A DNA stretch of 64,000 bases, taken from an uncultured Verrucomicrobiota bacterium (GTDB taxonomy: Bacteria > Verrucomicrobiota > Verrucomicrobiia > Limisphaerales > UBA8199). Position numbers and translations under genes: made by a program. The notes under the pieces were generated by a model. That model saw only the letters and a program-made list of their open reading frames with translations. It was not told the origin of the DNA and did not search any database. The stretch spans positions 130,671 through 194,670 of the forward strand of contig CAZVFC010000013.1 in NCBI GenBank assembly GCA_964625855.1, in the 5' to 3' direction. Below are positions 22,912-41,501 of the stretch, one piece after another (the first letter of the stretch is position 1; each line of letters starts with the position of its first letter).

Positions 22912-22955
22912 CTCACCGGATACTCGCCGGATACAAACCGGATACTCACCGTAGA
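22912..22955 (+). repeat. 11-mer tandem array (CTCACCGGATA-type, 4 units)
   Basis: CTCACCGGATA CTCGCCGGATA CAAACCGGATA CTCACCGTAGA. Confidence 0.75.
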
Positions 22956-23127
22956 TAACATTTGGACCCGCTTGATACAAACCGTTACCTTGCAAAGACT
23001 TAGCGCCACTTAGTTTCGGTTAGGCGAGACAGAAGTCCTGCCTGCCCGGGTCTTCCGGGTCATCGGCGATGCCCGCTGGAAGACCGCTGCCGACCAGCCT
23101 TGGCAGACGGTCAAAACAGGAAGGCAT

Positions 23128-23366: not shown

Positions 23367-23484
23367 ATGGGCAACACCTCTGCACCAGGCAAGAGCGAAT
23401 TGGCGTGTTCCGTGACACCTTCCTCACCGAAGGCGTTGCAGATTCTGCGCGAGAAGCTCGAATTCCTGCTGGTTGAAGAAGCGG
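23367..23484 (+). pseudogene. Short ORF fragment (ALQILREKLEFLLVEEA), cut at the methyltransferase junction
   Basis: ATG 23367, coiled-coil-like segment, runs into the MTase remnant out of frame and stops at 23501. Family identity uncertain. Confidence 0.3.
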
Positions 23485-24033
23485 TCTTCCATGAAGGATG
23501 ATCCCGTTTACACCCCGAGCGACTGCTTCGAAACCTTCCCGTTCCCGGCGGGATGGGAGACAAACGCGGCGCTGGAGGCGTCGGGTCGTGAGTATTACGA
23601 GTTCCGCGCGGCCCTCATGGTTCGCAACGACGAGGGCCTTACCAAGACCTACAACCGCTTCCACGACCCTGAAGAATCCTCGCCGGACATCCTCAAGCTC
23701 CGCGAGTTGCACGCAAAGGTGGATGCCGCCGTCCTCGCCGCCTACGGCTGGACCGACCTGGACACCGCATGCGATTTCATTCTCGACTACGAAGAGGATG
23801 ACGCCGCCGGAGAATCCTCCGCCCGCAAGAAGAAGAAACCCTGGCGCTACCGCTGGTCCGACGAAACCCGCGACGAAGTCCTCGCCCGTCTCTTGAAACT
23901 GAACGCTGAGCGCGCGCAGGGGGAGAAGCTCTCCGGCCAGGCCGACACTAGACGCGCCGTCGGCAGTGCCGTCAGTAGAAGGCTCAACAAGAAAGCTCGC
24001 ATGGCATCCGACAATACCCAGACGCTGCTTTAG
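23485..24033 (+). pseudogene. drmMI: C-terminal remnant of a DISARM class 1 adenine methyltransferase (DrmMI-like), copy 1
   Basis: YTPSDCFETFPFP, GLTKTYNRFHDP, LRELH..VD.AV..AYGW, R.RW.DE.RDEVLARLL.LN.ERA. The catalytic N-terminal part is absent. Confidence 0.75.
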
Positions 24034-24075: not shown

Positions 24076-27000
24076 ATGAATATCATTACCGCCAATCCGG
24101 ACGAGTGGCGTACCCCAGGTCGGCGCGTCGCCAGGTATGCAGGGCCGGATTGGCTGGCCGGTATCAGTGAGGCATGCGTTTCGGCGTCGAAAGTCCCAAA
24201 GCGGTATTACACCATTGACTTGAGTAACTTGGATTTCGTCACGCTCTCAGCGTGGGTAGGCATGGTGGCTTTTCTGGAGCGCTTGGCGGCAAATCCGCTA
24301 ACCACAAGTGTTGGGATTGACCTCAAAGGCCACAGCGAGCTTCGGTTGCTGTCACCTTCCGAGTTCATCGACGCCGAAGCACACGCTGGCGAAGGTGAAG
24401 ATCGGCCATCTCGAGGTCCAGAGTTCCTGCAGGCTAGGAGAATGTACCAGATCAGTGGATTTATCGAATCCTTGGGGACTCGGACAGTACTCAACATCCC
24501 TGGGCGCGGCGACCGGATCAGCTACATTTGGCTGGGCGAAAAGGGGGCTCGACTCAAAGCCTTTGCCACCCGGCCCGGTGGAAAACACACGGTCGTCATG
24601 CCGCTCATGCGCATTGAGACAAAGGCACACTGTAAGCAGTTCCTCGAACCAGAAAAGATTCTAAACTGGCGTGAGGCGATGGGGGACAAATTCCGCACCT
24701 CACCGCTCTTCGAGTCGGAGGAGGTTTGGAGAATCTTCTGTCACGAACTTTCTGTGAATATATTCGAGCACGCTGGTTCGGCAGGCTTCCTTGCCGCCCG
24801 GGTTGTCGACAGGGAAGGTCTGACACAGTCCTGGTGTGAGATGTCGTATTCCTCTCAAATCCGCGAGCTATTCCCTCTGATGTCATCCGGCTTTCTGGAA
24901 CTCTGTATAAGCGATGGGGGCCAAGGATTTGCTGCTACATTGGAACGGGCCTACCGCAAGCAAGTGGGCCTGAAGACGAACGATCCTGCCCGGCCACAGG
25001 ACATCTTGCAGTTTGCGTTCGACGAAGTTGGCACATGTAAGAAGGAGAACGAATGCTGGGCTACTGAGCGGCATGCGCTGGGGCGCATTCTGCAAATAGT
25101 CGCGAAGTACGGCGGGGCATTAGCGCTTCGATCTAGTGGCGCGGAAGTCGTTTACGTCAGTCATGGCGGACCATTTGAGCGACGGCCCAATCATCTCGGA
25201 TACCGCGCACAAACCGATCGCTTGTGCTCGAAATTGCAGGGTTCTGACCTGCAAGTTATTTTGCCATTGGTCCCATTTGTCCGTGAAGCGAAGGAAGATT
25301 GGCGCCGGTCTATCCTCATTTCTTCGCTACCAACTGGATTTCATGCCGACCCCACTCACGTACGAGGGCACCTGGTTCCGCTTTTGGAGGTCCTCGATTC
25401 ACAGGATGCTTGTGTAGGACCTGAAGAACTGCGAGCGTTCCGAAAACGATGCGAAGCCCTTGCAACAAGGGTGATTGAGGAACGCCCACCGCTAGAGCCA
25501 ATTATCCTCGACTTCAGCAGCCTTAACTGGACACCTGCTCAGTTCGAGACCCTGCTCCATCTGCTGCAAAACGTGCTTCAGAATCGACCCGTGCTCCTTG
25601 TCGAAATTGAGCACAATCTTGTGCGCGAGGTGGTGGAAATGGAGAAGTCGGCGCCAACACAACTCGCGCCAGAAGTGGCGGACAGAACCCCTAGCGTAAC
25701 CGGTCGCGCTTTCGCGGAGCTTTCCGAAACCAGTTTTCTCGAGACATACCATCGTGTTCACGCAACCGTCCTCGGCCTCGACATCCACGGAAAGCCCCAT
25801 GTGCTCGGCCTGAAGCATCGCTGGTGCGAACCCCTTTTGCTCTCCTTGATCGAAAAACCGCAAACCTTGGAGAGTCTCTGCACGGGACAGCCGCCAGACA
25901 ACGAACGCGCGCTCCGCGCCATTTTCAACAATATGAACCCGTTGTTCTGCGTAGAGGAGGACGGACGCTGGCGTACCGTCTGGGACAAGCACGCGATAGA
26001 CATTGAAGCCCGAAGGGTTATGACGCGGCACTTCGATGTGATCGCTGACCACTGCCAAGCCTGGCGTGGCCGCGTTAACCACTACGCGAAGGCAGCGTCG
26101 GAAATCACAGGAGAGCCGGAGATTCTCAGGGACAAGTACCAGATGACGTTCAACCTGCCCTGGCAGAAGGAGTGGGTTTGTGAGTTTTTCGAAAGTTCAC
26201 GCATTCTCTCGCGCCAACGGTACGCCGACGAGGCCGCACAGAGATTAATCTTCCGTCTGGAGAGAGGGCTGCGGCTCGACGGCAAGACATTGGAAGATGT
26301 GCACGTCCTTGCGTGCGTGACGGCGCCCGCAATCCTGCTTGCGACAGCGCTGCACCGGTGGTGGCCGAACGAAAAGCGACCGGCCATCGCTGACCTGGGA
26401 CACTACCTCATGCTGAACCCAGACGGCCCCCTCCCTGCGATCGCGAGTTTCAGCGGCATCGTCGTCGTCCAGGACGTCTTGGACAGGCGCAACATTTCAA
26501 ATCGGCTGGTTGGGAAACTCCGTGAGCAGAAAAAGGAGGTGCTCTGCGTTCTCAGCTTGGCTCGCCTCGTTGACGCACAGGAGCCTGTCGGCGTGACACC
26601 CATTGATGAAGGCTGGCAACAAACGATACACGACCCGCCAGGCCTCAAAAGCCACGCCCTCGTCAACCTCCTCCGCCCGCAGCGGTGTCCCCCGAGTGAC
26701 CATAACGACCCGCGGGCGCACTGGGTTGAGCCGAGGACGCTTCGCCCATTCCGCTACAGCACACTCCGGCGGGAGGTGCAAGCCAAAGGCACTCCTCGCG
26801 AGCGTCTGCGCCCGTTCTTTACCCCAAAGCAAAGAGGGATTATCTGCGCGGGTCACTACGTTTACGGCGAACGGCACTTCAGGGTAGCGCTCGACATCAA
26901 AGCGGCCCTGGACGGTGAAATAGGCGGCGAACTGGCGGCTTGGCTGGCAGATGTCTGCCAGGGGGTCTCACCCCGATCGGCCGAATGGGAGAGCCACCGA

Positions 27001-29247
27001 GGGAAAAGCCTGCCGGGGGATGTTACCGCAGTCTTGATGCCTCTGCACAGTCAGATCCACTACCTTTGGCCCCGCGTTGAGAGGCTCCTCGCGCAACGCG
27101 GACGCCGGCAGATGATGTGGGTGCTTGACGCCACCCTGTTCCTCGGCCACGGACCGGCCTACCGCCTTCCGCTCCAATTCCTCGAGCAAATCAGACTCGT
27201 GATGCGGTCACTAATCGAGGCAAAGCGTTTTCGAAAGCCAGCAGGCGGCTCGGCAATACGAATTCTCATCCTTGATGATTCCATCTTCTCCGCGCGAACA
27301 ACCGAGACGATCCTGGCCGAGATAGACCGTGCTGTCTCCAAAGCGTGCGAAGCGGCCGGCGCTGCAGGGGAAGGGATTAGCCCAATTCAGTGGATAAGGT
27401 ACGTAGCCGTATTCAACCAAATGAGCCACGCAAAGTATCTCCACTGGAAGAACCTGAACTACGTTGGCTCTATACGCACCGTTCCGTTCGTATTCGACGC
27501 CTACCGATCCATTTTAGGCGGCCCAACATTCGAAGAGGAGAACTGCCCGTGCTGCGCGGATGCAAGACGGCTGGAGAGACTGGTCGCTGCAGCAAAACGT
27601 CACTCGACAGACCTCGCAGGCGCGTGGGCGGAGCAGCAAGGGGAGAGCCTCCAACCCATCGCCATCGACAGCCCGGGGTTTCAAAAGAATCCTCCCGTTG
27701 ACCTCCCACGGCCGATCGACCTTCTTGGTCGCAAACACGCCCCGGTCATGCCTGACCAGTACCAACTCTGGAACGCTGATGAAGCCATTCTGCGCTTCTA
27801 TGAGTTGATGTACATGTCCTATCCACCAAGTGACGTCCTGCGTTCGCTAAGTGCTCCCAATGCATGGGCAGCGTCCGGAGATGGTCCACAAGTCGCAGCC
27901 GAGTACGCGCGGTTCCGCTGGGGCGTTCTTGAGTGGTGTCTGCGAAACTGGCCAAGGCTGGTAGCCGATTCCGCCCGAGATCTCTTCTTTGAATGCGTCC
28001 GCGCGGAAGTAGGGGCGGAAAGCACCATCGCCGAAGCTCTGTTTGAGGGGATGTCCCGCCAACGGAACGACGAAGAGGTAAAGGCTTTCATTGTCGAGGC
28101 GTTGCAGACGCTTGCCCGCTTGGAGACGCAGAAGCCCCGCCACGGGTCCGATTCGTCGCGAAATGCGGGGCCGAGTCTCTTACTTCTTGAAAAGGCACTG
28201 ACGATCGTCCTGCTTAGCATTCCTCACGAAGAATTGGTCAACTTCACGCTGACCGTTAACGGAAATGCCTTGAAGATCGTTGACTTTCTGTCGCGTCTCG
28301 CATCTTCTCGAAAAGAGCGCGGTCTGAGTGTCATCGGTAACCTGCATCTATGCTTCAGCCGACCGCGCCGCGCCGACCCAGCCTGGGCACTCCAGGTGCT
28401 CGCGGAAAATCTGTTTCGAGGTCGCGATCCGGATAATGCCGTCATGTCAAGCCACCGCCTCCTGCCAAAGTTGCTTAGCGACTTAGATCTCGGCACTGCA
28501 ACTTCCGGGGATCGAAGGTTGCTCCTTAGCAGCCTAAACCTCTTCCTTGCCGCACTTGCGGACCTCGCCCGCTTCGCAGCAGGCCGTCTTCTCCCGTTTC
28601 GAGAGATTGCAGCGCTAGGCGGGAGTGTTTTGGATTGGCTGAAAACCCACCCTGAAGACGGTGCGCCACCTAGGTCGGTAACCGAATTGCTCGACGCGCT
28701 CAGCCCGGATCAGGCACCAAACCCGGGAGTCAACTTCTATGGTCCATTCAGTAAAGTCTTTCATGTGGCCGTCGGCGATCTTGAATCCCTCCTTGCCCCC
28801 GCCGTCAATAAAGCCAAGGAGATAAATCCCGACTTCACGTTCAAGTTCCAGCCGAACGACGTCCAGCGGTTCTACGTTTTGACCGTGATAGATCGCCTCT
28901 GCGGCTTTCTGACCAATTGGGCAATTGACCCTGCACAAAAACCATCTCAGCGCCGCTCCGGCCTCAAGAGCCGAATCGAAGTTCATCGTCAACCCATGCC
29001 TCTGGGAACCGACAACCTCCGCTTCCGGATTCTCACGAACTTCGAAGACCTTCAAACTACCCAGGACCGTACAATTCATGGCCCCAACCACGACCGCGAA
29101 GTCCGAACGATGGTTATGTTTGGCGCCATGCTGCCCGATCAGTGGGAAACGCCATCTGAGCCCGAACAGGCCGAACGGTTCACCGCTTGCTACGAGTTCC
29201 AGTTACCAACCGGGTTTACCCCAAAGCAGAAAAACCATGAGCTTTAA
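24076..29247 (+). CDS. 1723-aa multidomain protein: STAS-like, GHKL ATPase, STAS-like, PRTase x2, CxxC, helical region, degenerate GHKL-like end
   Basis: TIDLSNLDFVTLS (STAS), HELSVNIFEHA / ISDGGQGF / GGALALRSSG (GHKL boxes), IILDFSSL, IVVVQDVL and ILILDDSIFSART (PRPP-loop-like), GHYVYGERHF, CPCC. Confidence 0.7.
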   Translation: MNIITANPDEWRTPGRRVARYAGPDWLAGISEACVSASKVPKRYYTIDLSNLDFVTLSAWVGMVAFLERLAANPLTTSVGIDLKGHSELRLLSPSEFIDAEAHAGEGEDRPSRGPEFLQARRMYQISGFIESLGTRTVLNIPGRGDRISYIWLGEKGARLKAFATRPGGKHTVVMPLMRIETKAHCKQFLEPEKILNWREAMGDKFRTSPLFESEEVWRIFCHELSVNIFEHAGSAGFLAARVVDREGLTQSWCEMSYSSQIRELFPLMSSGFLELCISDGGQGFAATLERAYRKQVGLKTNDPARPQDILQFAFDEVGTCKKENECWATERHALGRILQIVAKYGGALALRSSGAEVVYVSHGGPFERRPNHLGYRAQTDRLCSKLQGSDLQVILPLVPFVREAKEDWRRSILISSLPTGFHADPTHVRGHLVPLLEVLDSQDACVGPEELRAFRKRCEALATRVIEERPPLEPIILDFSSLNWTPAQFETLLHLLQNVLQNRPVLLVEIEHNLVREVVEMEKSAPTQLAPEVADRTPSVTGRAFAELSETSFLETYHRVHATVLGLDIHGKPHVLGLKHRWCEPLLLSLIEKPQTLESLCTGQPPDNERALRAIFNNMNPLFCVEEDGRWRTVWDKHAIDIEARRVMTRHFDVIADHCQAWRGRVNHYAKAASEITGEPEILRDKYQMTFNLPWQKEWVCEFFESSRILSRQRYADEAAQRLIFRLERGLRLDGKTLEDVHVLACVTAPAILLATALHRWWPNEKRPAIADLGHYLMLNPDGPLPAIASFSGIVVVQDVLDRRNISNRLVGKLREQKKEVLCVLSLARLVDAQEPVGVTPIDEGWQQTIHDPPGLKSHALVNLLRPQRCPPSDHNDPRAHWVEPRTLRPFRYSTLRREVQAKGTPRERLRPFFTPKQRGIICAGHYVYGERHFRVALDIKAALDGEIGGELAAWLADVCQGVSPRSAEWESHRGKSLPGDVTAVLMPLHSQIHYLWPRVERLLAQRGRRQMMWVLDATLFLGHGPAYRLPLQFLEQIRLVMRSLIEAKRFRKPAGGSAIRILILDDSIFSARTTETILAEIDRAVSKACEAAGAAGEGISPIQWIRYVAVFNQMSHAKYLHWKNLNYVGSIRTVPFVFDAYRSILGGPTFEEENCPCCADARRLERLVAAAKRHSTDLAGAWAEQQGESLQPIAIDSPGFQKNPPVDLPRPIDLLGRKHAPVMPDQYQLWNADEAILRFYELMYMSYPPSDVLRSLSAPNAWAASGDGPQVAAEYARFRWGVLEWCLRNWPRLVADSARDLFFECVRAEVGAESTIAEALFEGMSRQRNDEEVKAFIVEALQTLARLETQKPRHGSDSSRNAGPSLLLLEKALTIVLLSIPHEELVNFTLTVNGNALKIVDFLSRLASSRKERGLSVIGNLHLCFSRPRRADPAWALQVLAENLFRGRDPDNAVMSSHRLLPKLLSDLDLGTATSGDRRLLLSSLNLFLAALADLARFAAGRLLPFREIAALGGSVLDWLKTHPEDGAPPRSVTELLDALSPDQAPNPGVNFYGPFSKVFHVAVGDLESLLAPAVNKAKEINPDFTFKFQPNDVQRFYVLTVIDRLCGFLTNWAIDPAQKPSQRRSGLKSRIEVHRQPMPLGTDNLRFRILTNFEDLQTTQDRTIHGPNHDREVRTMVMFGAMLPDQWETPSEPEQAERFTACYEFQLPTGFTPKQKNHEL

Positions 29248-30856
29248 AATACTATACGTCGAAGACCACGCGCCTTACGCCGAACGCGTCGCCAAGGCGA
29301 TCAGCCCGGACCCGGTGGGTGCGGACAAAGCAGCCGGCTCTCCTTCTGAGTCTCGCCCACTCTCGCTAAAAGTAATCCCCAAGCCCGAGCAGCTACCCGA
29401 AGAGCTGAAGGCCAATTACGACCTCCTCCTTGCAGATCTCCTTTTTCCCGACGAAACTGGAGAGGAAGTGAATAGACTGGACGACATCATTCGCTTCGCC
29501 CAAGAGTGGAGTAAGGCCAACCAGTTCGAACGACCGCTCCCCATAATCGCGTACACCCGGCGTGAAAAGGGGGCCCTCGACTACTGCCTCCAACGGCGAG
29601 ATGCACTTTTCGACATCTGGGATAAGGCCTCGGCATCCCCGCCTTACGCGGCCTGGCGACTGACACGCCTCGCCGTAGAACTCGCTCGCGTGCGGCCCGA
29701 CGCCCTGCTGGAGCGCCTAATTCGCACCATGCCCCCAGGCGCGAGTTGGCACGCCCACGTCCGGGAAATGGCGCTGCGCTACGGGAACGGTTGGACCGAG
29801 GCCGACCAAATTGAACAGGCGGGACGTTGCATTCTCGACATTGCCTCCGAACTGGACGTCTTCAATGCCTGCAAGACCTACTGGGGCGCCATGTCCGACT
29901 GGGAGCCGCTTGGTCGTGCGGTATCCCGGCGGGCACGCGGTCACGCCCGGCACGTCATCAATGTCTTCTGGCTAGGCTACATTCTCCTACACAATCCGAA
30001 CTGTCGGCCATGGTTCGAACAAGCATGGAGGCGACTCCTGACTGACCGCACCGATATGAAGTGCGTGAGAGGAGTGGATCCGATTGAGGCGCTGAGCAAC
30101 TGCTGGTTCTACGGGAGTCTCTTTCACGATTCTGCACACTGCGTTGAGGAGTGGGAGAGCGTTCCCAAGAAGGGCGAGGATGTCCTCACGGTATTCCATG
30201 ATTTTGTTAACGTCAGGACCGGCAAGGGCGCTCTCTCGAAAGCCCTGAAAGAATCCGCCGAAAAGCTTTTTCGCGACCTGGGTGCCGACGTCTCCACGCG
30301 CCTGAAACCCCTTTGGAAGAAGAACTTGGGGGATAGGCATCCAGATCACGGCGTGGTCGCCGGCGCCCACATCATCCGAAAAATCAAATCAAAGGACAAC
30401 CCGCATCAACATTGCTTCGTCCGGGAAGCAGCCCGGGCCATGGCAATTCACAACCTTGTCGGTAAGCTCCCAGCCACGCCCGATGCCTTCCTGTCGTGGG
30501 ACAAACATCCCATTGCATGTATGCTGCTGCTCTGCGATCAAATTCAAACTTGGGACCGCGAACGCGCCGACAAGAAGTTGAGTGAAAAGGACGAGCCGGA
30601 GCGGGCGGAGTTGCTCGATTTTAACGTGACCAAGGTGACTGATCATACCGCGGTCTCTCTGGCAATCGAGTACGTTGCTCCCCGCCACTTGGATCATGCC
30701 CCCGAGGTCTTCAGACGTGTCAAAGATGACCTCGAAGAGGTGATCGAAGAGAAGCCTAAGGCCGCTCTCAGTCGGATCAAGCGTCCTTGGCCTTTCTCTG
30801 TATCTGTCAAATGTTGGCTCAGCGGCAAACCACTGACCCGGAAAATGGATTTCTGA
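29237..30856 (+). CDS. Response-regulator receiver fused to an HD-superfamily phosphohydrolase
   Basis: REC: ILYVED, LLLADLLFP, IIAYT, DIWDK. HD: H..HV..V, LFHD, DHG, AIHN, LLLCDQIQTWDR. ATG 29237 overlaps the upstream gene by 11 nt. Confidence 0.8.
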   Translation: MSFKILYVEDHAPYAERVAKAISPDPVGADKAAGSPSESRPLSLKVIPKPEQLPEELKANYDLLLADLLFPDETGEEVNRLDDIIRFAQEWSKANQFERPLPIIAYTRREKGALDYCLQRRDALFDIWDKASASPPYAAWRLTRLAVELARVRPDALLERLIRTMPPGASWHAHVREMALRYGNGWTEADQIEQAGRCILDIASELDVFNACKTYWGAMSDWEPLGRAVSRRARGHARHVINVFWLGYILLHNPNCRPWFEQAWRRLLTDRTDMKCVRGVDPIEALSNCWFYGSLFHDSAHCVEEWESVPKKGEDVLTVFHDFVNVRTGKGALSKALKESAEKLFRDLGADVSTRLKPLWKKNLGDRHPDHGVVAGAHIIRKIKSKDNPHQHCFVREAARAMAIHNLVGKLPATPDAFLSWDKHPIACMLLLCDQIQTWDRERADKKLSEKDEPERAELLDFNVTKVTDHTAVSLAIEYVAPRHLDHAPEVFRRVKDDLEEVIEEKPKAALSRIKRPWPFSVSVKCWLSGKPLTRKMDF

Positions 30857-30883: not shown

Positions 30884-31105
30884 ATGACCTCCCCCCAAGT
30901 CCGCTCTGAACTCGTCGAACCCCTCAAGCTCGACCTCGTCGGCCCCGACAACGACCACGCCTTTGCCCACGAGCTGCTTCCGGACGCGCCCTCACGCTGG
31001 TATCTCTCGGGCTTTCTCGTTCCCTCAGAGGCCCCCGCCGACCGGAAGACCGGCGAAACCTCCACCGACGAAAATGACAGCGGCGGCGACACCGGCGGCA
31101 CGGAC
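30884..31105 (+). pseudogene. drmA: 5' fragment of drmA (second, diverged copy)
   Basis: 30908-31105 matches 35417-35614 at 184/198 nt, then breaks. Confidence 0.9.
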
Positions 31106-31114
31106 CACGTCAGG

Positions 31115-31559
31115 CTGATGGTGCGCAACAACGAGGGCCTGACAAAAGCCTACAACCGCTTCCACGACCCTGAGGAAACCTCGCCCGACATTCTCCGCCT
31201 GCGCGCACTCCACGCGGCCATGGACCGCGCCGTCCTCGAAGCCTACGGCTGGTCTGAGCTCATCCCCCAGTGCCAGTGCGAATTCCTGCTCGATTACGAA
31301 GACGAAGAAGATGGCGCCGAGGAAACCGGCCGCCGCCGCAAGAAGCCCTGGCGCTTCCGCTGGCCCGACGAGGTCCGCGACGAAGTCCTCGCCCGCCTCC
31401 TCAAACTCAACGCCGAGCGCGCCGAGCAAGAAGCGCTGGCCGGCCTCACCGCCGCCGCCGGTAAGAAGAGGCTGAATAACCCGCGTGCCAGACCCTGCTC
31501 CGCTGCCCCACCCCCAAGGCGACATCATCCCCGGCCCCCAAACCGACCTCTTCGCCTAA
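31115..31559 (+). pseudogene. drmMI: C-terminal remnant of a DrmMI-like methyltransferase, copy 2
   Basis: About 70% amino-acid identity with copy 1 over ~100 residues. Fused in frame to the drmA fragment. A plausible original end (PQTDLFA*, stop 31557-31559) lies in another frame, implying a frameshift near 31470. Confidence 0.75.
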
Positions 31560-31744
31560 ACTTCGCCCCTGGCAAAATCATGTCTCCGAGTTCCGAAGAA
31601 ACGGCCTCGCTTTGCGTGCTTTGCGTTCTTTCGCGGCCATCTCCCTCCTGGCTTTCGGCTTCGACATCCCGCACCACATCCAGGTTATTTGCGGATTATG
31701 TGCAAAAAGCTATACAACATTGTACTCTGTGACATATTTATAGC

Positions 31745-33058
31745 ATGTTAATCGAGTTTAGAGTAATAAACTTCAAATCTTTCCGAGAGGAGCAAACGCT
31801 CAGCCTCGTCGCCTCCAATTACGACAAAGAGCTTCCCGGGAACTTGATTGAACCGCCTTTGCCCGGTCTCAAGGACACGCGAGTGCTCAAAGGGGCGGGG
31901 CTTTATGGAGCTAATGCTTCCGGAAAAAGCAACCTGCTAACGGCTTTATTCACGGTCCAGGACTTGGTTCGGGAATCAGCCGACGCCAAGCCCGAGGCGC
32001 CTTTGTCGGCGGAGCCGTTCGCGCTCGCCAAAGATGCGGCGTCAGACCCAGTTGTCCTGGACGTGACGTTCATGGCTGCGGGGACGCGGTATGAGTATGC
32101 CATCGCGCTGTCAGTTGAGCGTGTTTTGGCGGAGCGGCTAACTGCCTATCCTGAAGGAAAGGCACAGCTTTGGTATGACCGCATCTGGAACCCGAGTACG
32201 CGTTCCTACGAATGGACGCCGGACCGTTCCGCGTATTACCAGCGGGACGCCAAGCGTGTCGAGTTCACTCGGCCTAACGCCCTTTACCTCTCGACGGCCG
32301 TCAAACTGAACGACGAGCAATTGGCGCCAGTCTATGCGTGGTTCACCAAGCAAGTGCATTTCCTGAATCTAGCCGCCGATGGCGGAATCGGCGCCGGGTT
32401 CACCGCGTCGCTGTTGCGGGACAAGTCTCCGCTCGGAAAGAAGGTCGTGGACCTGCTGCGCCACGCCGACCTCGGGGTATGCGGCGCTCAGGCGATCGAA
32501 AGGGCTTGGGCAAGGGAGGATTTCCCTGAGGATATGCCCCGGGAAGTGGTGGAAGAAACTAAGAAATCCAAGCGTCTCGAAATCTCGCTTACGCACCAGG
32601 GTGTTGCGGAAGCCACGCTTGAACTGCCGTGGGAAGCTGAGTCCGCCGGAACACGCCGCTTCTTCGGTTTAGCCGGCCCGTGGCTGGACATTCTCACCAA
32701 TGGGTATTTGGTGTGCGTTGATGAACTCGACACCAGTATGCACCCCTCGATGGTGTTTGAACTGCTCAAGCTGGTTTTCAGCGCTGAGCACAACCCCAAG
32801 GGGGCGCAAATCGTATTTACCACCCACAACCCGCTCCTCCTCGACCCCACCCTGATGCGCCGCGACCAGGTCTGGTTTACGCACAAGAAACAAACCGGCG
32901 AGTCATTCTTATATCCGCTTACCGACTACAAGCCGCGCAAGGGCGAGTCCCTGGTGCGTGGATATATGTCTGGCCGCTACGGTGCGGTGCCGTTCATTCC
33001 TCGTGGACTGATGGACAACGCCGTGCCGCCCAGGGAGGAAGCGGTTCATGGCCGCTAA
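31745..33058 (+). CDS. AAA_21 / RloA-like ABC ATPase (abortive-infection associated)
   Basis: EFRV.NFKSF, GANASGKSN, ESAGT, VDELD.S.HP, FTTH, Y..GRYGAVP. Confidence 0.9.
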   Translation: MLIEFRVINFKSFREEQTLSLVASNYDKELPGNLIEPPLPGLKDTRVLKGAGLYGANASGKSNLLTALFTVQDLVRESADAKPEAPLSAEPFALAKDAASDPVVLDVTFMAAGTRYEYAIALSVERVLAERLTAYPEGKAQLWYDRIWNPSTRSYEWTPDRSAYYQRDAKRVEFTRPNALYLSTAVKLNDEQLAPVYAWFTKQVHFLNLAADGGIGAGFTASLLRDKSPLGKKVVDLLRHADLGVCGAQAIERAWAREDFPEDMPREVVEETKKSKRLEISLTHQGVAEATLELPWEAESAGTRRFFGLAGPWLDILTNGYLVCVDELDTSMHPSMVFELLKLVFSAEHNPKGAQIVFTTHNPLLLDPTLMRRDQVWFTHKKQTGESFLYPLTDYKPRKGESLVRGYMSGRYGAVPFIPRGLMDNAVPPREEAVHGR

Positions 33059-33376
33059 ACCCGGCCCCTTGCGGCCCCACGAGGAGCGCCGGACCTACAC
33101 CAGGCGTCGGCCAGTCGAGCCCCCGCCGGACCAGCCGGGCCTTGGTGATTCCTTTCTGATTCTCACCGAGGGTGAGGTCACCGAGCGGATGTACTTCGAG
33201 GCCTTGCGCACAGTATTGCTCGTCAACCCCGTGACGGTGCGGGTCGTCCACCCGGGCTGCACGGACGCGGAGGGTCTTGTGCGGGCGGCAGTGCAGGAGC
33301 GGGACGCGGCGCCCCAACGCCGCGACCGCTGCGAGGCGGGCAACCGACAAGTGTCTCACTACGACCACGTCTGGGT
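33048..33376 (+). pseudogene. RloB-domain protein, 3'-truncated
   Basis: LILTEGEVTE..YF TOPRIM-like start and YDHVWV. The expected VFD continuation is replaced by unrelated sequence. Confidence 0.75.
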
Positions 33377-33736
33377 GACCAGAACCGACAAACGGCCCGC
33401 TTACGCGAAGCGATCGCGGCTGGCCTTGTTTACGAGAGCAACCCCAAGCATAGGGCACCGTGGCAAGCCGGTCGGCGCGGCTCCCTCTGCCCAAGAGATA
33501 TTACCATCCAACAGGCCCAGGAATTGCTCAATTCGAGTATTCTCTGTGGCAAGAAACGATACGCGGCTGATAGGCAAGGCCACCCTTACTGCGCTCAGGC
33601 GCACGAACCAACCCGCGGACGCTGGCACGGTTACCCCGTCGCTTGGAAGGAAGTGCCCGTTGAGGTCCAAACAACCTTCGTGCAGAAGGGCCTTGTCTCA
33701 ACCCGTCAAATAAGCGACTTTTGGGAAGGATTTTGA
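33377..33736 (+). pseudogene. 5'-truncated small toxin/RNase-like ORF upstream of the ImmA gene
   Basis: Frame without a start codon reads LVYESNPKHRAPWQAGRRGSLCP...KRYA...WHGYPVAWKEVP...GF*. The ORF track shows only its last 70 aa. The stop lies 3 nt before the next start. Confidence 0.6.
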
Positions 33737-33739
33737 TAA

Positions 33740-35311
33740 GTGCATCACTACGGAACATATGGGATGGGTGACCGGGAGAAGTTCTTCTTCCAGTTGGCCT
33801 TCGAGCCATCCGCAGACCCCGCTTTTGTCGCGTCCGAAGAAGATGCCCTTTCGTGGGGAAGCTTCCAGATGTGGGTGGGAGGCCGGAACCTGTGCCGCTA
33901 TGCTGTTGGGACGGAAGAAAGCCAATCCGTGTACTGGCATCTCTTCCCGTTCATGGAGTGGTTGGTGGAGCACTGGGACTACCTCTTCCACGAGCAACGG
34001 CCTCCCATCCGGAACGCAGCTCAGTTCGCCTGGCAATCGTTGGCCGAAACGAACTCACCCTTGGCGCTGGAGCACGGAGGCGATTGGGACTTTGCCGCCG
34101 CGGCTAGGAATGCCGAGTGGTCCGCCCGCCACTCCATCACGACATGCCGCGAAGGCGGATTGTTCCCCGGAGTCGTATTCCGGCGGTTCTGGAGCGATGT
34201 CGAAGTCTCGTGGGGAGACAAACCGCCGCCGGGGGCGCCGGCTGGCTTCCGATTCGTTGAAAGCGGCGGAGCCGCCCGCTTGCCTGTTCCCCTCGTCGCC
34301 GAACCCATCCACAACGTCCTCGCGGTAGCCGTTAAGGCATTGCGGCGCAGCCTGCCCGAAAACAAGAGACTTGCCCTCCTGGAAAAGCAGCTCGGCGATT
34401 TGCCTGCCCCTGAGCACCAACCGCGCCGGTTGGCAATCCTGGCGGGCCTCGGGGAGAATCCGAAACAATGGACCAAGCGATGGCTCTCGCTCCAGCAGGC
34501 GCTCGCCAAGGAGTTCGCTGACACCAAGGATACACTGGCGCATTTGTTCGGCGGCGATGCTAGAAATGCGCTCGTGGTTCAGGGCAGTTGCGAGGGAGCA
34601 CTCATGTTCGGAGCGGCGGCCCCCACGCTCCGCGAGCGAGACGTCTTCAATCTGGCCAGCCGTCTCGTCCGGCACTCAACCAGCGCGGCCGCGCAAGACA
34701 AGCTGGCCCCCCACGCCACGTATCGCCCACCCAATCCGCGCGCCTCTTTGCCCTGGCAAGAAGGTTACCAACTCGCGCAAGAATGGGCGAGATCGAGCCA
34801 CCTTGATAACCCCACCCAGCCGGTGGATGTCGAAGCCCATCTCAACGCTTTTGGCGTGACGGTAGATGAATTGGCGATCGAGGACGAGCAGATCGGTGGC
34901 GTAGCCATCGCCCGTGAAAAGCGAAATCCCCTAATTCTTTGGAACAGCCGTAACCCGCGGAATAAGTATCCATCCGGGCGGCGGTTCTCCTTGGCTCACG
35001 AACTGTGCCACCTCCTCTACGACCGGCGGGCCGGCGCAGAGTTGGCACTGATCTCAGGCCCCTGGGCTCCCATAGAGCTGGAGAAACGTGCCAACGCCTT
35101 CGCTGCCATGCTCCTGATGCCTGACGCTCTGGTGGAAAGGGCGTTTGCTGGCACAAGCGGCGGAGCATCCCGCCCGTCGTTTGAAGATCTCCTTGCAGCG
35201 GCCAAGAAACTCCAAGTCAGTGCGAACGCGCTCGCGCACCATCTCTCCAATCGTGGTTGGATTTCCCCAGAGATGAGAGACCTGTTGCTGGAGCAAGTGA
35301 TCGATCGGTAA
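33740..35311 (+). CDS. ImmA/IrrE-family metallopeptidase with a large N-terminal domain
   Basis: RRFSLAHELCHLL (HExxH) and E.RANAFAAMLLMP, with an HTH-like C-terminus. Confidence 0.88.
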   Translation: MHHYGTYGMGDREKFFFQLAFEPSADPAFVASEEDALSWGSFQMWVGGRNLCRYAVGTEESQSVYWHLFPFMEWLVEHWDYLFHEQRPPIRNAAQFAWQSLAETNSPLALEHGGDWDFAAAARNAEWSARHSITTCREGGLFPGVVFRRFWSDVEVSWGDKPPPGAPAGFRFVESGGAARLPVPLVAEPIHNVLAVAVKALRRSLPENKRLALLEKQLGDLPAPEHQPRRLAILAGLGENPKQWTKRWLSLQQALAKEFADTKDTLAHLFGGDARNALVVQGSCEGALMFGAAAPTLRERDVFNLASRLVRHSTSAAAQDKLAPHATYRPPNPRASLPWQEGYQLAQEWARSSHLDNPTQPVDVEAHLNAFGVTVDELAIEDEQIGGVAIAREKRNPLILWNSRNPRNKYPSGRRFSLAHELCHLLYDRRAGAELALISGPWAPIELEKRANAFAAMLLMPDALVERAFAGTSGGASRPSFEDLLAAAKKLQVSANALAHHLSNRGWISPEMRDLLLEQVIDR

Positions 35312-35389: not shown

Positions 35390-38300
35390 ATGAGCACTTC
35401 ATCCGCGATCCGCAGTGAACTGGTCGAAGCCCTCAAACTCGACCTCGTAGGCCCCGACAACGACCACGCCTTTGCCCACGAGTTGCTTCCGGACGCGCCC
35501 TCACGCTGGTATCTCTCGGGCTTCCTAGTTCCCTCAGAGGCCCCCGCCGACCAGAAGACCGACGAAACCTCCTCCGAAGAAATTGACAGCGGCGGGGACA
35601 CCGGCGGCACCGACGACGACACCGAGCCCGACCGCGCCGCCGCGCGCAAAAGCATCCTGCCCTCCTCGATGGGCCTCAGCGTCCTGGTCCCTCCGGGCAT
35701 CGAAACCCTGAATGCTATCGTCGCCTGGGGCGATTACGTGTACGAAGGTGCAGACCAGGAACCCGCCGTCTCCGCCCCAACCTTGGAAAGCCCGGACGAA
35801 CTGCACGACAAACCAGCCCCCTCCGGCGCCCCTCAAGACCCCAACGATCCAACAATCCAACAATCCAAGACTCCACCCCAGCCGAGAGGCTACCGCCGCG
35901 ACCCGAGGGAAGAGAGCGTCTCCATCGCTCTGCCCGCACCTGGCGGCAAGCCGAACCAATTTCTCGTGCCAAACAGCGGCGGCCTCACCCTGAGCGTAAC
36001 CGTCCGCGCCGTGCCTGCCGCCGGTCACGCTTCCACCCGTTTGCCTGCCGGCGCTCGCTCCGTCTCCGTTTTCCTCGTCAACCATCGCCCACCCAACAAG
36101 GAACGCGGCTATCGCGCCTTTGCCTTCCAAACCTGCCTTAAGCTCATCGCTCCGCAGCCCTTCACACCCCGCCCTGACCTGCGCGGCACCCTCTCGGGCG
36201 CGGCTACCGAAGAATGGGACGAGCAAGTTGCCGATCTCCAGTTCCGCGACGTTTTCGAATACGCCGTTGGCCACGGTGTTTCCGCCACTGCCGAGCACGA
36301 GCCGGGCGGCGCTTGCCGCGTTGTGAAGACCACTTGGATTCCGACCGCCGAAGTCGAGAAGGTTTCCCCGGCTCCAATCCCTGACGTGGAGTTGCGAATC
36401 GAAGCGCTCGGCGCGCTCGCCGACCACGCCGAGGCACAAGCCAAGCTTTCCCCGCTCGTCGCTCACTACCGAGAATGGTTGGACGACCAACAGAAGAAAG
36501 CGGCGGCGGCAAACCTCGAAGCCCGCCACGCTCAGACCGCTCAAGACCTCATCCTCTCCGCCCGGCACACCGCCGACCGCATCCAGGCCGGCATCGCTGC
36601 CCTCGCGGACCCGCAGTTGCTCGACGCCTTCCGCATCGCCAACCGCGCTATGGCCGCCTCTGCCCGGCAACGCGAGCTCGTCCGCCACCAGGGCGACGCC
36701 AGCAAAGTGCAGCCGCCCACCTGGTATCCCTTCCAGCTTGCTTACATCCTGATGAATCTCCGGGGCATCTTCGACCCCACGCACCTGGACCGCGAGACGG
36801 TTGACCTCCTCTTCTTCCCGACCGGCGGCGGCAAAACCGAGGCGTACCTCGGCCTCGCTGCCTTCGCTATGGTGCTGCGCCGCCTCCGGCACCCCGGCAT
36901 CCGCTCCGCCGGCGTTTGCGTCTTGATGCGCTACACTCTCCGCCTGCTCACCTTGGACCAGTTGAGCCGCGCTGCTGCCGTTATCTGTGCGCTCGAATTG
37001 GAGCGCGAGAAGGATACGGAAAAGAAACTGGGCGAATGGCCGTTCGAAATCGGACTCTGGGTCGGCTCCGCCGCCACCCCCAACCGCATGGGCCGGCGTG
37101 GCGACACCAGCTCCGCGGCGAAGTACACCGCCTACACCAAGACGATGCACTTCCAGAAGAATTCCAACAGCAACCCCGCGCCTATCCCCATTGAGAATTG
37201 TCCCTGGTGCGGCCACAAGTTTGACCGCAACTCCTTCCGCCTCGTTCCTAGCGTCAACGCGCCCACCGACCTGCGGGTTGTCTGCGTCAACCCTAAATGC
37301 ACCTTCTCCGGCGACCGATTTCTGCCGGTCCTCGGAGTTGACGAACCTATCTACCGCCGCCTGCCCGCCTTCCTCATCGCCACCGTTGACAAATTCGCCG
37401 CCCTGCCATGGACCGGCGAAACGGGCGCCCTTTTCGGTTTGGTTGACCGCTACGACCAGGAAGGTTTTTACGGCCCCTGCGATCAGAAGCACGGCAAAGC
37501 TCTCGGCGGGCCCTTGCCGCCCCCCGAACTTATTATCCAAGACGAGTTGCACCTGATCTCCGGTCCCCTCGGAACCATCGCCGGAGTTTACGAAACCGCC
37601 ATTGACATGCTCGCCACCAGGACCGGCGGCGAAATCACGCTCCGACCCAAGATCATCGCCAGCACCGCCACCGTCCGGCGGGCCGAGGCTCAGATCCACG
37701 CCCTGTTCGAGCGTAATCATGTCGCCATCTTCCCGCCGCCAGGCCACGACCGGCGAGATTCCTTCTTCGCCCTGACCGAGCCTTCGGCCACCACCGCCGC
37801 CCGCCTCTACGTCGGCGTCGCCGCCCAGGGACGCAGCCTCAAAGTCGTCTTGCTCCGCGCCGGGCTGGCCCTGCTCAGCGCCGGCCAGACTGCCTACCAG
37901 CGCGAAGGCGGCAAGGCCAACAAGCAGAACCCCACCGACCCTTACATGACGCTCTTGGGCTATTTCAACAGCCTCCGCGAGTTGGGCGGCAGCCGCCGGA
38001 TCGTCGAAGATGAAGTGCGAACCCGCGTCCAGCAGTACTCCCGCCGCAAACGCCGCGACGCTGCCGACAATCTCTTTTCCGCTCGCAACATCACCTACGA
38101 AGTTTTGGAACTCACGTCCCGCGTCTCCACCGGCGATGTCGCCACCGCCAAGCGCCGCCTGGCCCTGCCGTTCCACGAGGACGAACGCGTGGACGTCGCC
38201 CTGGCCACCAACATGATCTCCGTCGGCTTGGACATAATCCGGCTTGGCCTCATGGTCGTGCTGGGCCAGCCAAAAACCAGCGCCGAATACATCCAGGCCA

Positions 38301-38914
38301 CCAGCCGCGTTGGCCGCGACCCCAATCGCCCCGGCTTGGTCGTAACGTTGCTCAACGTCCACAAGCCCCGCGACCGCTCCCACTATGAGCGGTTCGAGAT
38401 GTACCACGCCACCTTCTACCGCGCCATCGAAGCCACCAGCGTCACCCCCTTCTCGCCCCGCGCCCTCGATCGCGCCTTGCCCGCGGCCCTTGTCGCCCTC
38501 TGCCGCCAGGGGATGCCCGCTTTGACCCCGGCGCTTGGCGCAACCGGGATTCTCACCTTCCGGGCGATGCTCGACCGCTTCGCCACCCGCTTTGCGGACC
38601 GCGCCCGCAACCACGACCCGAGCCTCACCCCCGCTGCGGCGCAGGAGTTGGCCGACAAAGTCCTCCACCGCTGCGGCCGCTTGCTGGACGACTGGCGCAA
38701 CATCGCCGACGAGTTCCAACAAACCAACACCAAGCTTCAGTATCAGCAGGAAGTCGGCGCCGCTCAGCGCCTCCTCTACCCGTTCCTCCATCCCGATTTG
38801 CCGAACCTTCCCCCCGTGCGCCGGAAGTTCCGCGCCAATCGCTCTATGCGCGACGTGGAACCAAGCGTGGATCTCGGTGTCAAGAATTTGAACGATTGGA
38901 CGCAAAGACCATGA
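35390..38914 (+). CDS. drmA: DISARM SF2 helicase DrmA
   Basis: FFPTGGGKTEAY, MRYTLRLLT.DQ, QDELHLISGPLG, ASTAT, ATNMISVGLDI, YIQATSRVGR. Precedes DUF1998 and PLD genes. Confidence 0.92.
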   Translation: MSTSSAIRSELVEALKLDLVGPDNDHAFAHELLPDAPSRWYLSGFLVPSEAPADQKTDETSSEEIDSGGDTGGTDDDTEPDRAAARKSILPSSMGLSVLVPPGIETLNAIVAWGDYVYEGADQEPAVSAPTLESPDELHDKPAPSGAPQDPNDPTIQQSKTPPQPRGYRRDPREESVSIALPAPGGKPNQFLVPNSGGLTLSVTVRAVPAAGHASTRLPAGARSVSVFLVNHRPPNKERGYRAFAFQTCLKLIAPQPFTPRPDLRGTLSGAATEEWDEQVADLQFRDVFEYAVGHGVSATAEHEPGGACRVVKTTWIPTAEVEKVSPAPIPDVELRIEALGALADHAEAQAKLSPLVAHYREWLDDQQKKAAAANLEARHAQTAQDLILSARHTADRIQAGIAALADPQLLDAFRIANRAMAASARQRELVRHQGDASKVQPPTWYPFQLAYILMNLRGIFDPTHLDRETVDLLFFPTGGGKTEAYLGLAAFAMVLRRLRHPGIRSAGVCVLMRYTLRLLTLDQLSRAAAVICALELEREKDTEKKLGEWPFEIGLWVGSAATPNRMGRRGDTSSAAKYTAYTKTMHFQKNSNSNPAPIPIENCPWCGHKFDRNSFRLVPSVNAPTDLRVVCVNPKCTFSGDRFLPVLGVDEPIYRRLPAFLIATVDKFAALPWTGETGALFGLVDRYDQEGFYGPCDQKHGKALGGPLPPPELIIQDELHLISGPLGTIAGVYETAIDMLATRTGGEITLRPKIIASTATVRRAEAQIHALFERNHVAIFPPPGHDRRDSFFALTEPSATTAARLYVGVAAQGRSLKVVLLRAGLALLSAGQTAYQREGGKANKQNPTDPYMTLLGYFNSLRELGGSRRIVEDEVRTRVQQYSRRKRRDAADNLFSARNITYEVLELTSRVSTGDVATAKRRLALPFHEDERVDVALATNMISVGLDIIRLGLMVVLGQPKTSAEYIQATSRVGRDPNRPGLVVTLLNVHKPRDRSHYERFEMYHATFYRAIEATSVTPFSPRALDRALPAALVALCRQGMPALTPALGATGILTFRAMLDRFATRFADRARNHDPSLTPAAAQELADKVLHRCGRLLDDWRNIADEFQQTNTKLQYQQEVGAAQRLLYPFLHPDLPNLPPVRRKFRANRSMRDVEPSVDLGVKNLNDWTQRP
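35841..35872 (+). repeat. Octamer array inside drmA
   Basis: CCAACGAT CCAACAAT CCAACAAT CCAAGACT. Confidence 0.7.
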
Positions 38915-40707: not shown

Positions 40708-41501
40708 TGCTCAACGCGCTCCAAAACCTGCCCCCGGCCGCCCTGCGCTCGCTCGCCGCCTCGCTCCGCGAAGGCCCCCTCGCCCTCGGCCTTTCTCGCC
40801 ACGCGCTCGCCCAGGCCATCGGGCCGCAGGCCCAGGCCGTCCGTGAATCCCTCGACGGTCTCGTCCAGCAAGGCATGGCCCCAAAACACATCGCAATCCT
40901 GGCCGAGGCCATCGCCCAATGTTCCGAGCGCGCCGCCGCGCCGCAAAGCCTGTTCGAGCTTGTCCTCTCCGGCCCGGAAGTCCCCGGCGTACCGACTGCC
41001 GACACCGCCGCAACCATTCAGACCCTGATTGAAAACGCCGAAACCGAAATTGTCCTGGTCGGCTATGCAGTCCACAACGGCAAGAAGCTGTTCAAAAGAT
41101 TGGCGGAAAGGCTCGACGCTGCCCCGACACTCCGCGTCGTCTTCTGTCTCGACATCGCCCGGAAGCAAACGGACACGTCACTCGCCGGCGAGATTATCCG
41201 TCGCTTTTGTCACGACTTCGCCACCAAACACTGGCCCGGCAAGCGCCTCCCCGACCTCTACCACGACCCCCGCGCCCTATCCGAAACAGCCCAGGCACGG
41301 GCCAGCCTGCACGCCAAGTGCGTGATCGTTGACCGCCGCATCGCCGTAATCACTTCCGCCAACTTCACCGAAGCCGCTCACACCAAGAACATCGAAGCCG
41401 GCGTCCTCATCCGCTACGAACCGTTCGTGACTCGCCTAAGCGCCTACTTCGAAGCTTTGCGTAATTCCGGCCAGTTGACCCCGTGCAGCCTGGAAGTTTA
41501 A
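40707..41501 (+). CDS. drmC: DISARM phospholipase-D-family nuclease DrmC
   Basis: LV.SGP, LHAKC.IVD (HKD), TSANFT, N.EAG. Start overlaps the drmB stop. Confidence 0.92.
   Translation: MLNALQNLPPAALRSLAASLREGPLALGLSRHALAQAIGPQAQAVRESLDGLVQQGMAPKHIAILAEAIAQCSERAAAPQSLFELVLSGPEVPGVPTADTAATIQTLIENAETEIVLVGYAVHNGKKLFKRLAERLDAAPTLRVVFCLDIARKQTDTSLAGEIIRRFCHDFATKHWPGKRLPDLYHDPRALSETAQARASLHAKCVIVDRRIAVITSANFTEAAHTKNIEAGVLIRYEPFVTRLSAYFEALRNSGQLTPCSLEV

Follow-up and report, generated by a model that had tools for sequence, protein, structure and literature searches.

What is a pair of intact, overlapping genes doing between the fragments of a DISARM locus? We addressed this question for a 64,000-nucleotide (nt) stretch of DNA, hereafter the window, from an uncultured Verrucomicrobiota bacterium (GenBank assembly GCA_964625855.1, contig CAZVFC010000013.1, positions 130,671 to 194,670). 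Gene 1 (24076..29247) encodes a multi-domain giant of 1723 amino acids (aa) with homologs, and gene 2 (29237..30856) encodes a 539-aa protein that joins a receiver to an output domain with a His/Asp metal site; every gene, fragment and domain that is given window coordinates below lies on the + strand. Comparative genomics makes the pair a well-supported candidate for a receiver-gated effector defence module, within which the HD and STAS domain assignments are provisional. We hold with moderate confidence that the two genes form a horizontally transferred operon serving in anti-phage or anti-mobile-element defence by a two-component-like logic.

Both reading frames are intact and overlap, as an initial annotation of the window had proposed; the overlap measures 11 nt. 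Gene 2 starts at the ATG at 29237 (MSFKILYVEDH), which is kept in all homologs, and not at the more upstream TTG that opens the mechanically called open reading frame (ORF; 28925..30856). Full-length relatives form 48 clusters for gene 1 (31-69% identity) and 118 clusters for gene 2, so both are real genes rather than chance ORFs. Against 1.84 billion representative proteins, the gene 2 profile matched 134 clusters at E ≤ 1e-30 and 559 at E ≤ 1e-10; the 2094 clusters reached at E ≤ 1e-3 probably include generic receivers. Neither window protein matched any Pfam-A or NCBIfam family, and PADLOC v2 (5027 models, including HEC and PDC) gave zero matches at E ≤ 1 for either gene. These searches agree with the initial annotation, which knew of no characterised system with this pairing, and we found no description of the gene 1-gene 2 pair in the literature. 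Motif conservation was judged over 42 gene 1 homologs and 56 gene 2 homologs; every motif that the initial annotation had listed was found and is conserved over the respective set.

The proposal that the two genes belong together held in the contexts that we read, in the GTDB loci and in a subfamily at ~20% identity. We read 10 homolog contexts with gene calls; in each, the giant sits directly upstream of the gene 2 homolog on the same strand, overlapping it or within ~15 nt, and no conserved third gene accompanies them. GTDB, taken as one genome per species (185,579 species representatives), yielded 13 loci, and by tblastn the giant is directly upstream in all 12 with enough DNA to judge. The family is thus rare, and its distribution is patchy: it occurs in Verrucomicrobiota, Acidobacteriota, Desulfobacterota, Planctomycetota and Proteobacteria. 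The sole exception to pairing, in a Verrucomicrobiales metagenome-assembled genome (L014, 8117-11266), is a decayed copy, in which the gene 2 homolog is split by an IS66-family transposase and no giant is present.

At the distant end of the family, a gene 2 relative of ~20% identity (P0271) is preceded by an overlapping 1559-aa giant that aligns to the gene 1 profile over residues 148-1172 with a probability of 99.5% and keeps ELVQNVQDH, DDGLG, DDGISTGGT and CPDC. This alignment defines the conserved core of gene 1 as a GHKL domain, the middle region, two phosphoribosyltransferase (PRTase) folds and a CPxC motif; the first ~140 and last ~550 residues of gene 1 are lineage-specific. A homolog search started from the distant giant returned 2 proteins.

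The N-terminal domain of gene 2 (aa 1-150, 29237..29686) was verified as a receiver (REC). In the AlphaFold2 (AF2) model, which has a predicted local distance difference test score (pLDDT) of 91 and a predicted template modelling score (pTM) of 0.92, Foldseek retrieved the receivers of CheY, ETR1, NtrC1, PleD and PorX. A PDB profile search with the full gene 2 alignment gave nothing useful, and a broader profile was required to recover REC: a profile of 63 distant relatives matched PDB receivers with E-values down to 1e-12, and Pfam Response_reg matches 27 of these 63. The claim that all receiver residues are kept is borne out by this fold and by the conservation of E9/D10, D67 (within LADLLFP), T107 and K130; among the distant relatives, conservation of D67 and K130 is 90% or higher.

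Downstream of the receiver, gene 2 has an all-helical core in the AF2 model (aa 215-445, 29879..30571) with an HD-like dimetal His/Asp pattern. H236, H239, H297-D298, H405 and D434 are invariant, and H371 is near-invariant, in relatives down to 17% identity (the relatives span 17-78%, and the deep comparison set 17-29%); D370/G372 is also conserved over the 56 homologs. Of the full HD metal site that had been claimed, the invariant His/Asp ligands therefore stand; membership of the HD family is provisional, with weak or non-significant matches. Pfam HD is sub-threshold in 8 of the 56 and 3 of the 63 gene 2 members (best E 0.005), and gene 2 carries no HD-GYP motif. From its motifs, the core is probably an HD-like metal hydrolase. 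The protein ends in a predicted beta-hairpin/helix/beta-hairpin domain (aa 455-539, 30599..30853) with conserved Y479, W518 and P519.

The same core also occurs in another protein (P0242; L023, 5875-7659), in which it is fused to a SLOG domain (LDcluster4) in place of REC. This replacement suggests that the catalytic core is a swappable, regulated effector. P0242 adjoins a radical-SAM/SPASM gene and a 250-aa gene upstream, with no giant gene nearby, and its neighbourhood may be a separate small candidate system.

For gene 1, we verified a tandem of type-I PRTase folds, of which the second keeps its loop for binding phosphoribosyl pyrophosphate (PRPP) intact; catalysis is putative. The first (aa 690-870, 26143..26685) has a degenerate PRPP loop, VVVQDVLDRRNIS, which reads VVVQDVLD at 796 against a family consensus of QDVLDxGxxS; in the PDB profile search it matched OPRT and APRT at E 0.4-1, and an HGPRT loop matched at 761-808 in the relative P0011. 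The second (aa 880-1175, 26713..27600) has a near-canonical loop, ILILDDS..ART at 1063-1075 (D1067 D1068 ... S-A-R-T1075). An invariant His/Cys cluster comprises H927, H934, C961 and C1157-P-C-C1160 (CPCC at 1157).

Several searches agree with the tandem PRTase architecture of the initial annotation. The AF2 model of gene 1 spans residues 1-1200 (pLDDT 84, pTM 0.81), and its best 50 Foldseek matches in the PDB are all PRTases or PRTase-fold regulators, the best with an E-value of 1.9e-5 and a probability of 1.0, with template modelling scores to the target of up to 0.61. A BFVD search likewise found the PRTase fold. Pfam Pribosyltran matches 12 of 28 gene 1 homologs weakly, and relatives show weak PRTase loop matches at both ~761-808 and ~1038-1125. 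The PDB profile search with the full gene 1 alignment gave PRTase-loop matches at E 0.4-1 and, for aa 1200-1555, coiled-coil-type matches. With 50 Foldseek matches per model, other domains of either protein would be masked by PRTase and REC.

The N-terminal part of gene 1 is supported, at moderate strength, as a GHKL (Bergerat-fold) ATP-binding domain (aa 170-400, 24583..25275). Its N box, HELSVNIFEHAG, contains E224, N228 and H232, and its G1 box reads D280-x-G282-x-G284; both are conserved in the gene 1 homologs, with E224, N228 and D280xGxG invariant in the family. We scanned all segments of both proteins with a small profile of the dimerization and histidine phosphotransfer (DHp) and catalytic ATP-binding (CA) domains of histidine kinases, built from kinases in the fetched loci. 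By hhalign, aa 170-400 scored 41.6 (P 76%), compared with 10.7-17.2 for other segments, 11.5-16.7 for the reversed profile and at most 21.2 for column shuffles, and the signal was repeated in the distant subfamily (P 82%). BFVD added weak matches to topoisomerase II ATPase and a histidine kinase-like ATPase; Pfam HATPase_c matched neither gene 1 nor its relatives.

Two small alpha/beta units accompany this domain. The first (aa 1-135, 24076..24480) is STAS-like by AF2 strand and helix order only and is missing or different in the distant subfamily; the second (aa 430-530, 25363..25665) is defined by AF2 secondary structure and a conserved LDFS..W motif. Against a SpoIIAA profile, the two units scored 16.9-18.4, not above other segments (16.9 for aa 1-135), and Pfam STAS matched neither gene 1 nor its homologs. 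A SpoIIAB profile gave no significant match to the gene 1 GHKL domain; both SpoIIAA and SpoIIAB query sequences had been checked against the PDB. Of the anti-sigma-kinase-like STAS plus GHKL unit seen at first, the GHKL half is therefore retained on the histidine kinase CA profile and its controls, and the STAS half is provisional. Likewise, the E-x3-N-x3-H motif behind the anti-sigma likeness is present and the SpoIIAB profile is non-significant; we set aside an anti-sigma kinase with a STAS partner because this reading is unproven.

In the C-terminal third of gene 1, aa 1200-1555 (27673..28740) are conserved and probably helical, with coiled-coil-type PDB matches only, and cannot be aligned with the distant subfamily. 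The last segment (aa 1560-1723, 28753..29244) resembles a degenerate GHKL/CA domain, with an invariant N1614 and no DxGxG. It scored 32.0 (P 40%) against the CA part of the histidine kinase profile, above a background of 10.7-17.2 and shuffles of at most 19.4, and the signal was weakly repeated in the distant subfamily (26.7). The tail lacking DxGxG that had been described is in line with this comparison and its internal controls; we grade the GHKL-like call as suggestive.

The pair lies, as noted initially, in a drmMI-drmA interval with broken neighbours; more specifically, a DrmMI fragment stands on its left and a drmA/DrmMI chimera on its right, and the genes farther downstream are intact. 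The left fragment (23473..24033) is the C-terminal end of DrmMI (PADLOC E 1.3e-68; profile positions 822-997 of 1015) and stops 42 nt before the gene 1 ATG. On the right, a chimeric ORF (30884..31732) starts 27 nt after the gene 2 stop. Its first part (30884-31109, codons 2-66) is a duplicate of the drmA 5' end, 86% identical in aa sequence to the N-terminus of the window's own DrmA; its second part (31114-31455, codons ~76-196) is another DrmMI C-terminal piece (PADLOC E 3e-41) with 68% aa identity to the left fragment; and its tail is low-complexity and looks out of frame. With a 3' piece of drmMI on one side and a 5' stub of drmA on the other, the pair occupies the place of cargo in a second DISARM copy that is itself broken.

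Comparison with two other DISARM loci points to the origin of these pieces. The left fragment is closest to the drmMI of L108 (80% nt, 74% aa), and the right-hand pieces match L107, a 94%-identical DISARM locus, at 91.6% nt (drmA start) and 88.6% nt (drmMI end). We therefore take the right-hand pieces to be native and the left fragment to be closer to another lineage, that of L108, and the chimeric ORF resembles a scar left where two DISARM loci recombined. There seem to be two slots in tandem: one, which holds the pair, belongs to a foreign or duplicated DISARM copy of which only the edges are left, and the other, the resident slot, holds AbiL and an M78 peptidase. We found no inverted or direct repeats of the kind that mark transposons; the sole direct repeats are the two drmMI fragments. 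G+C content is 55-60% across 24-34 kb and 62-67% around it.

The drmMI-drmA junction varies in the same way elsewhere. Measured over 65 related DISARM loci, the gap between the drmMI homology and the drmA start spans 60 nt to 9.6 kb (less than 200 nt in 22), values that are overestimated by up to ~0.5 kb where DrmMI bears a C-terminal extension. This variation marks the junction as a cargo hotspot, and in 3 of the 65 loci it carries AbiL (AbiLi/RloB). Most of the genes nested within DISARM, BREX, Hma and type I restriction-modification loci are defence genes (bioRxiv 10.1101/2024.01.29.577857). Like the embedded HEC and PDC defence genes of Payne et al., the pair is same-strand cargo nested between core genes in a slot of variable content; unlike them, it is not among the PADLOC v2 HEC/PDC families, and its host DISARM copy is broken. 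We considered whether the pair is part of DISARM itself and rejected this, given that PADLOC shows no Drm homology and that none of 80 DISARM loci has the pair. The other pair loci that we read, from close homologs, contain no DISARM.

Those other loci nevertheless fit the defence-island setting suggested at first, in that defence or mobile genes lie near homologs as DISARM and Abi genes do in the window. AbiEi/AbiEii adjoin the pair homolog in L003; MmeI and an integrase are near it in L018, NOV_C in L019, two AAA_15/21 (OLD-type) pairs and a Roc-COR protein in L020, and a PIN toxin and a patatin in L021; a prophage-like block is near it on the P0003 contig. Across 139 flanking ORFs, PADLOC models were matched, in raw counts, for OLD/AriA/PtuA/GajA/AbiLi-type ATPases (4 ORFs), PD-T4-4/HEC-01 (3), mad2 (3) and NsnB (3). 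In L001 (9540-10001) and L004 (9530-9934), a short N-terminal piece of HsdM, the type I methylase, lies immediately before the giant. As a separate observation, these broken HsdM genes echo the broken methylase beside the window pair.

How might such a pair work? Gene 1 would be a cytoplasmic sensor and transducer built of the GHKL domain, the two PRTase folds, a variable C-terminal region and the GHKL-like tail, and one of its PRTase folds, beside the His/Cys cluster, could take PRPP or a nucleoside monophosphate as a ligand. It would sense an infection cue, perhaps with its variable C-terminal third, perhaps by binding a nucleotide or PRPP, and control the phosphorylation of D67 in gene 2. 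The phosphorylated receiver would then gate the His/Asp dimetal (HD-like) phosphoesterase, which, once active, would degrade nucleotides or nucleic acid and so stop the growth of the infected cell. The trigger, the control of gene 1 over the phosphorylation state of gene 2 and the effector substrate in this scheme are inferred. The initial annotation's proposals of a sensor making or consuming a nucleotide and of NTP/dNTP depletion are likewise conjectural. The residues that it calls on in gene 1 (E224, N228, D280, G282, D1067, D1068, T1075, C1157 and C1160) are invariant or nearly so. Deep residue invariance, strict pairing and translational coupling together suggest that all four chemistries, namely ATP, PRPP, phospho-acceptor and metal site, are used.

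A more specific version of the mechanism is speculative and, in our view, improbable: a GHKL-PRTase enzyme without a histidine kinase may couple ATP and PRPP chemistry to the receiver through a small phospho-donor, a phosphoribosyl signal or direct non-His phosphotransfer and so switch on the dimetal hydrolase, with the variable C-terminal third as the phage sensor.

A number of observations weigh against a defence operon of this design. The first concerns the phospho-donor of D67, which is a puzzle since gene 1 has no DHp histidine that we could find. In line with the early remark that no HisKA histidine was evident, HisKA matched none of 28 + 5 giants; a search for a DHp-like histidine in aa 1200-1560 found none, aa 1420-1560 scored at background against DHp by hhalign (13.6), and the conserved H1460 lacks an H-box context. 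Lacking a G1 box, the tail probably does not bind ATP, and the C-terminal 550 aa, where a sensor might lie, cannot be aligned between the subfamilies. On the effector side, the best PDB sequence match of the gene 2 core was a Cas3-type HD domain at E 0.46, a profile of the HD proteins YfbR, OxsA and Lin2634 gave no significant match, and no HD or HD-GYP structure was among the best 50 Foldseek matches for gene 2, which REC dominates. On the genomic side, the pair was not found in the 80 other DISARM loci (L107-L186) or in phage, plasmid and IMG/VR collections. At L022, the locus of the closest relative (69% identity), no defence neighbours could be recognised.

Some of these points would suit a regulator with no role in defence, in which a cytoplasmic sensor of purines, pyrimidines or PRPP is linked to a phosphodiesterase or nucleotidase by way of a response regulator, like RpfG or the stress partner-switching modules. 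Housekeeping proteins commonly join a receiver to a phosphohydrolase output, the PRTase-fold regulators PurR and PyrR are among the structural matches of gene 1, and the L022 locus shows no defence genes. We nonetheless regard such a regulator as unlikely: the family is very rare, at 13 loci among the GTDB species representatives; it is scattered over phyla, with G+C below that of its host, DISARM debris beside it here and integrases, insertion sequences (IS) and Abi genes beside it elsewhere; and gene 2 has neither an HD-GYP motif nor an HD-GYP structure among its best 50 Foldseek matches.

The missing DHp histidine also invites a different account of the signal. Gene 1 might use ATP and PRPP to make or sense a phosphoribosyl or phosphoryl compound, and the gene 2 receiver would either autophosphorylate from this compound or bind it, turning the hydrolase on. 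Receiver domains autophosphorylate from small phospho-donors such as acetyl phosphate. What both subfamilies share is the GHKL domain, the two PRTase folds and CPxC, not the C-terminal region, and the distant subfamily has a canonical PRPP loop (DDGISTGGT); moreover, in P0242 a nucleotide-sensing SLOG domain replaces REC next to a radical-SAM enzyme. Set against this are the degenerate first PRTase loop and the existence of PRTase-fold proteins, such as PurR and PyrR, that only sense a ligand; we also know of no precedent for a phospho-donor made by a PRTase. On balance, we judge this account unlikely.

We also considered the pair as selfish or mobile cargo, for example an addiction module (a toxin plus its regulator) or an anti-defence element, that disrupted the DISARM methylase on arrival. 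Three loci (the window, L001 and L004) have broken methylase genes next to the pair, the window is without an intact drmMI, and integrase, relaxase, IS66 and prophage-like genes lie near several pair loci. However, the pair carries no recombinase, inverted repeats or target duplications, it is absent from the phage, plasmid and IMG/VR collections, and its flanks resemble recombination of two DISARM loci rather than a transposition scar, which leaves this explanation very unlikely. That the pair consists of decaying, non-functional genes surviving in a degraded island is extremely improbable: the neighbouring DISARM genes are indeed fragmented, but both ORFs are full length, every residue invariant in the 42 and 56 homologs is retained, and the translationally coupled arrangement of the relatives is preserved.

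Among known systems, the candidate defence pair most resembles Detocs in its logic. Detocs is an anti-phage system made of the sensor histidine kinase DtcA, the buffer receiver DtcB and the receiver-PNP effector DtcC, in which the receiver Asp is essential (bioRxiv 10.1101/2023.01.24.525353). Both follow a two-component logic in which a response-regulator-like protein would carry an enzymatic, cell-arresting effector instead of a DNA-binding output, a role that is proposed for the pair. Yet the pair has no canonical HisKA/DHp histidine and no stand-alone receiver gene in any context read; its sensor contains PRTase folds where the Detocs sensor has TPRs, and its effector has an HD-like His/Asp site where Detocs has a PNP nucleosidase. 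With no HisKA, no DtcB, another effector and no match to a model, the pair is not a member of Detocs.

The separate parts have more distant counterparts. Gene 2 shares with REC-HD-GYP proteins of the RpfG type an N-terminal receiver followed by an all-helical domain, in gene 2 a probable metal phosphoesterase, with an H...HD...H...H...D type of pattern, but it lacks the HD-GYP signature and belongs to a rare accessory family paired with a giant. Gene 1 shares its fold with type-I PRTases and PRTase-fold regulators (OPRT, APRT, HGPRT, PyrR, PurR and HP1257) and, in its second domain, the DD-x3-[ST]-[AG]-x-T loop. It differs in falling below Pfam and NCBIfam thresholds, in placing tandem domains within a 1700-aa protein, in the degenerate first loop and in the added invariant His/Cys cluster, and its catalysis is putative. 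With the GHKL domains of histidine kinases (CA) and of SpoIIAB/RsbW, gene 1 has in common the E-x3-N-x3-H spacing of SpoIIAB, the DxGxG of G1, and a G2 helix and terminal strand that align with CA domains; it lacks a Pfam HATPase_c match, and the SpoIIAB comparison was non-significant. The PRTase and GHKL domains of gene 1 are thus remote members of their superfamilies.

If the pair does act in defence, it would be the second known case, after Detocs, of receiver phospho-signalling used directly in immunity, and the first in which the sensor has PRTase domains and no histidine kinase that can be recognised. Such a sensor raises the testable question of how the receiver Asp gets phosphorylated. 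Two sizeable uncharacterised families would also be added to the map, and the cargo hotspot between drmMI and drmA of class-1-type DISARM loci could be mined for further candidates.

The rest of the island is in better condition than the edges of the pair. The resident slot holds three intact genes: AbiLi (31745-33058), an RloB-like gene (33048-33713) and a CapP/RmrA-like gene (33740-35311), whose 523-aa product has a C-terminal M78/IrrE-type peptidase domain and may regulate the neighbouring cargo. AbiLi and RloB hold the same slot position in L107 and L108. These are followed by intact drmA (35390-38914; PADLOC E 1e-277), drmB (38896-40707; E 1e-76) and drmC (40500-41501; E 9e-71). Neither an intact drmMI nor drmD was detected in the window, where drmMI is present as two C-terminal fragments only; the window DISARM may be non-functional or may use a methylase encoded elsewhere.

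Around the pair, we found no tRNA, Rfam or sigma-70-like signals, and terminator-like sites were no more frequent than in shuffled sequence. Upstream of the island lie the housekeeping genes nadC, birA and coaX. NadC shares 76-83% identity with homologs from Limisphaerales-like metagenome-assembled genomes of the Verrucomicrobiota, which assigns the host to this group. Between coaX and the left DrmMI fragment, 0.7 kb of DNA is non-coding; at 22915-22984, it contains an imperfect array of 11-nt units that includes CCGGATAC.

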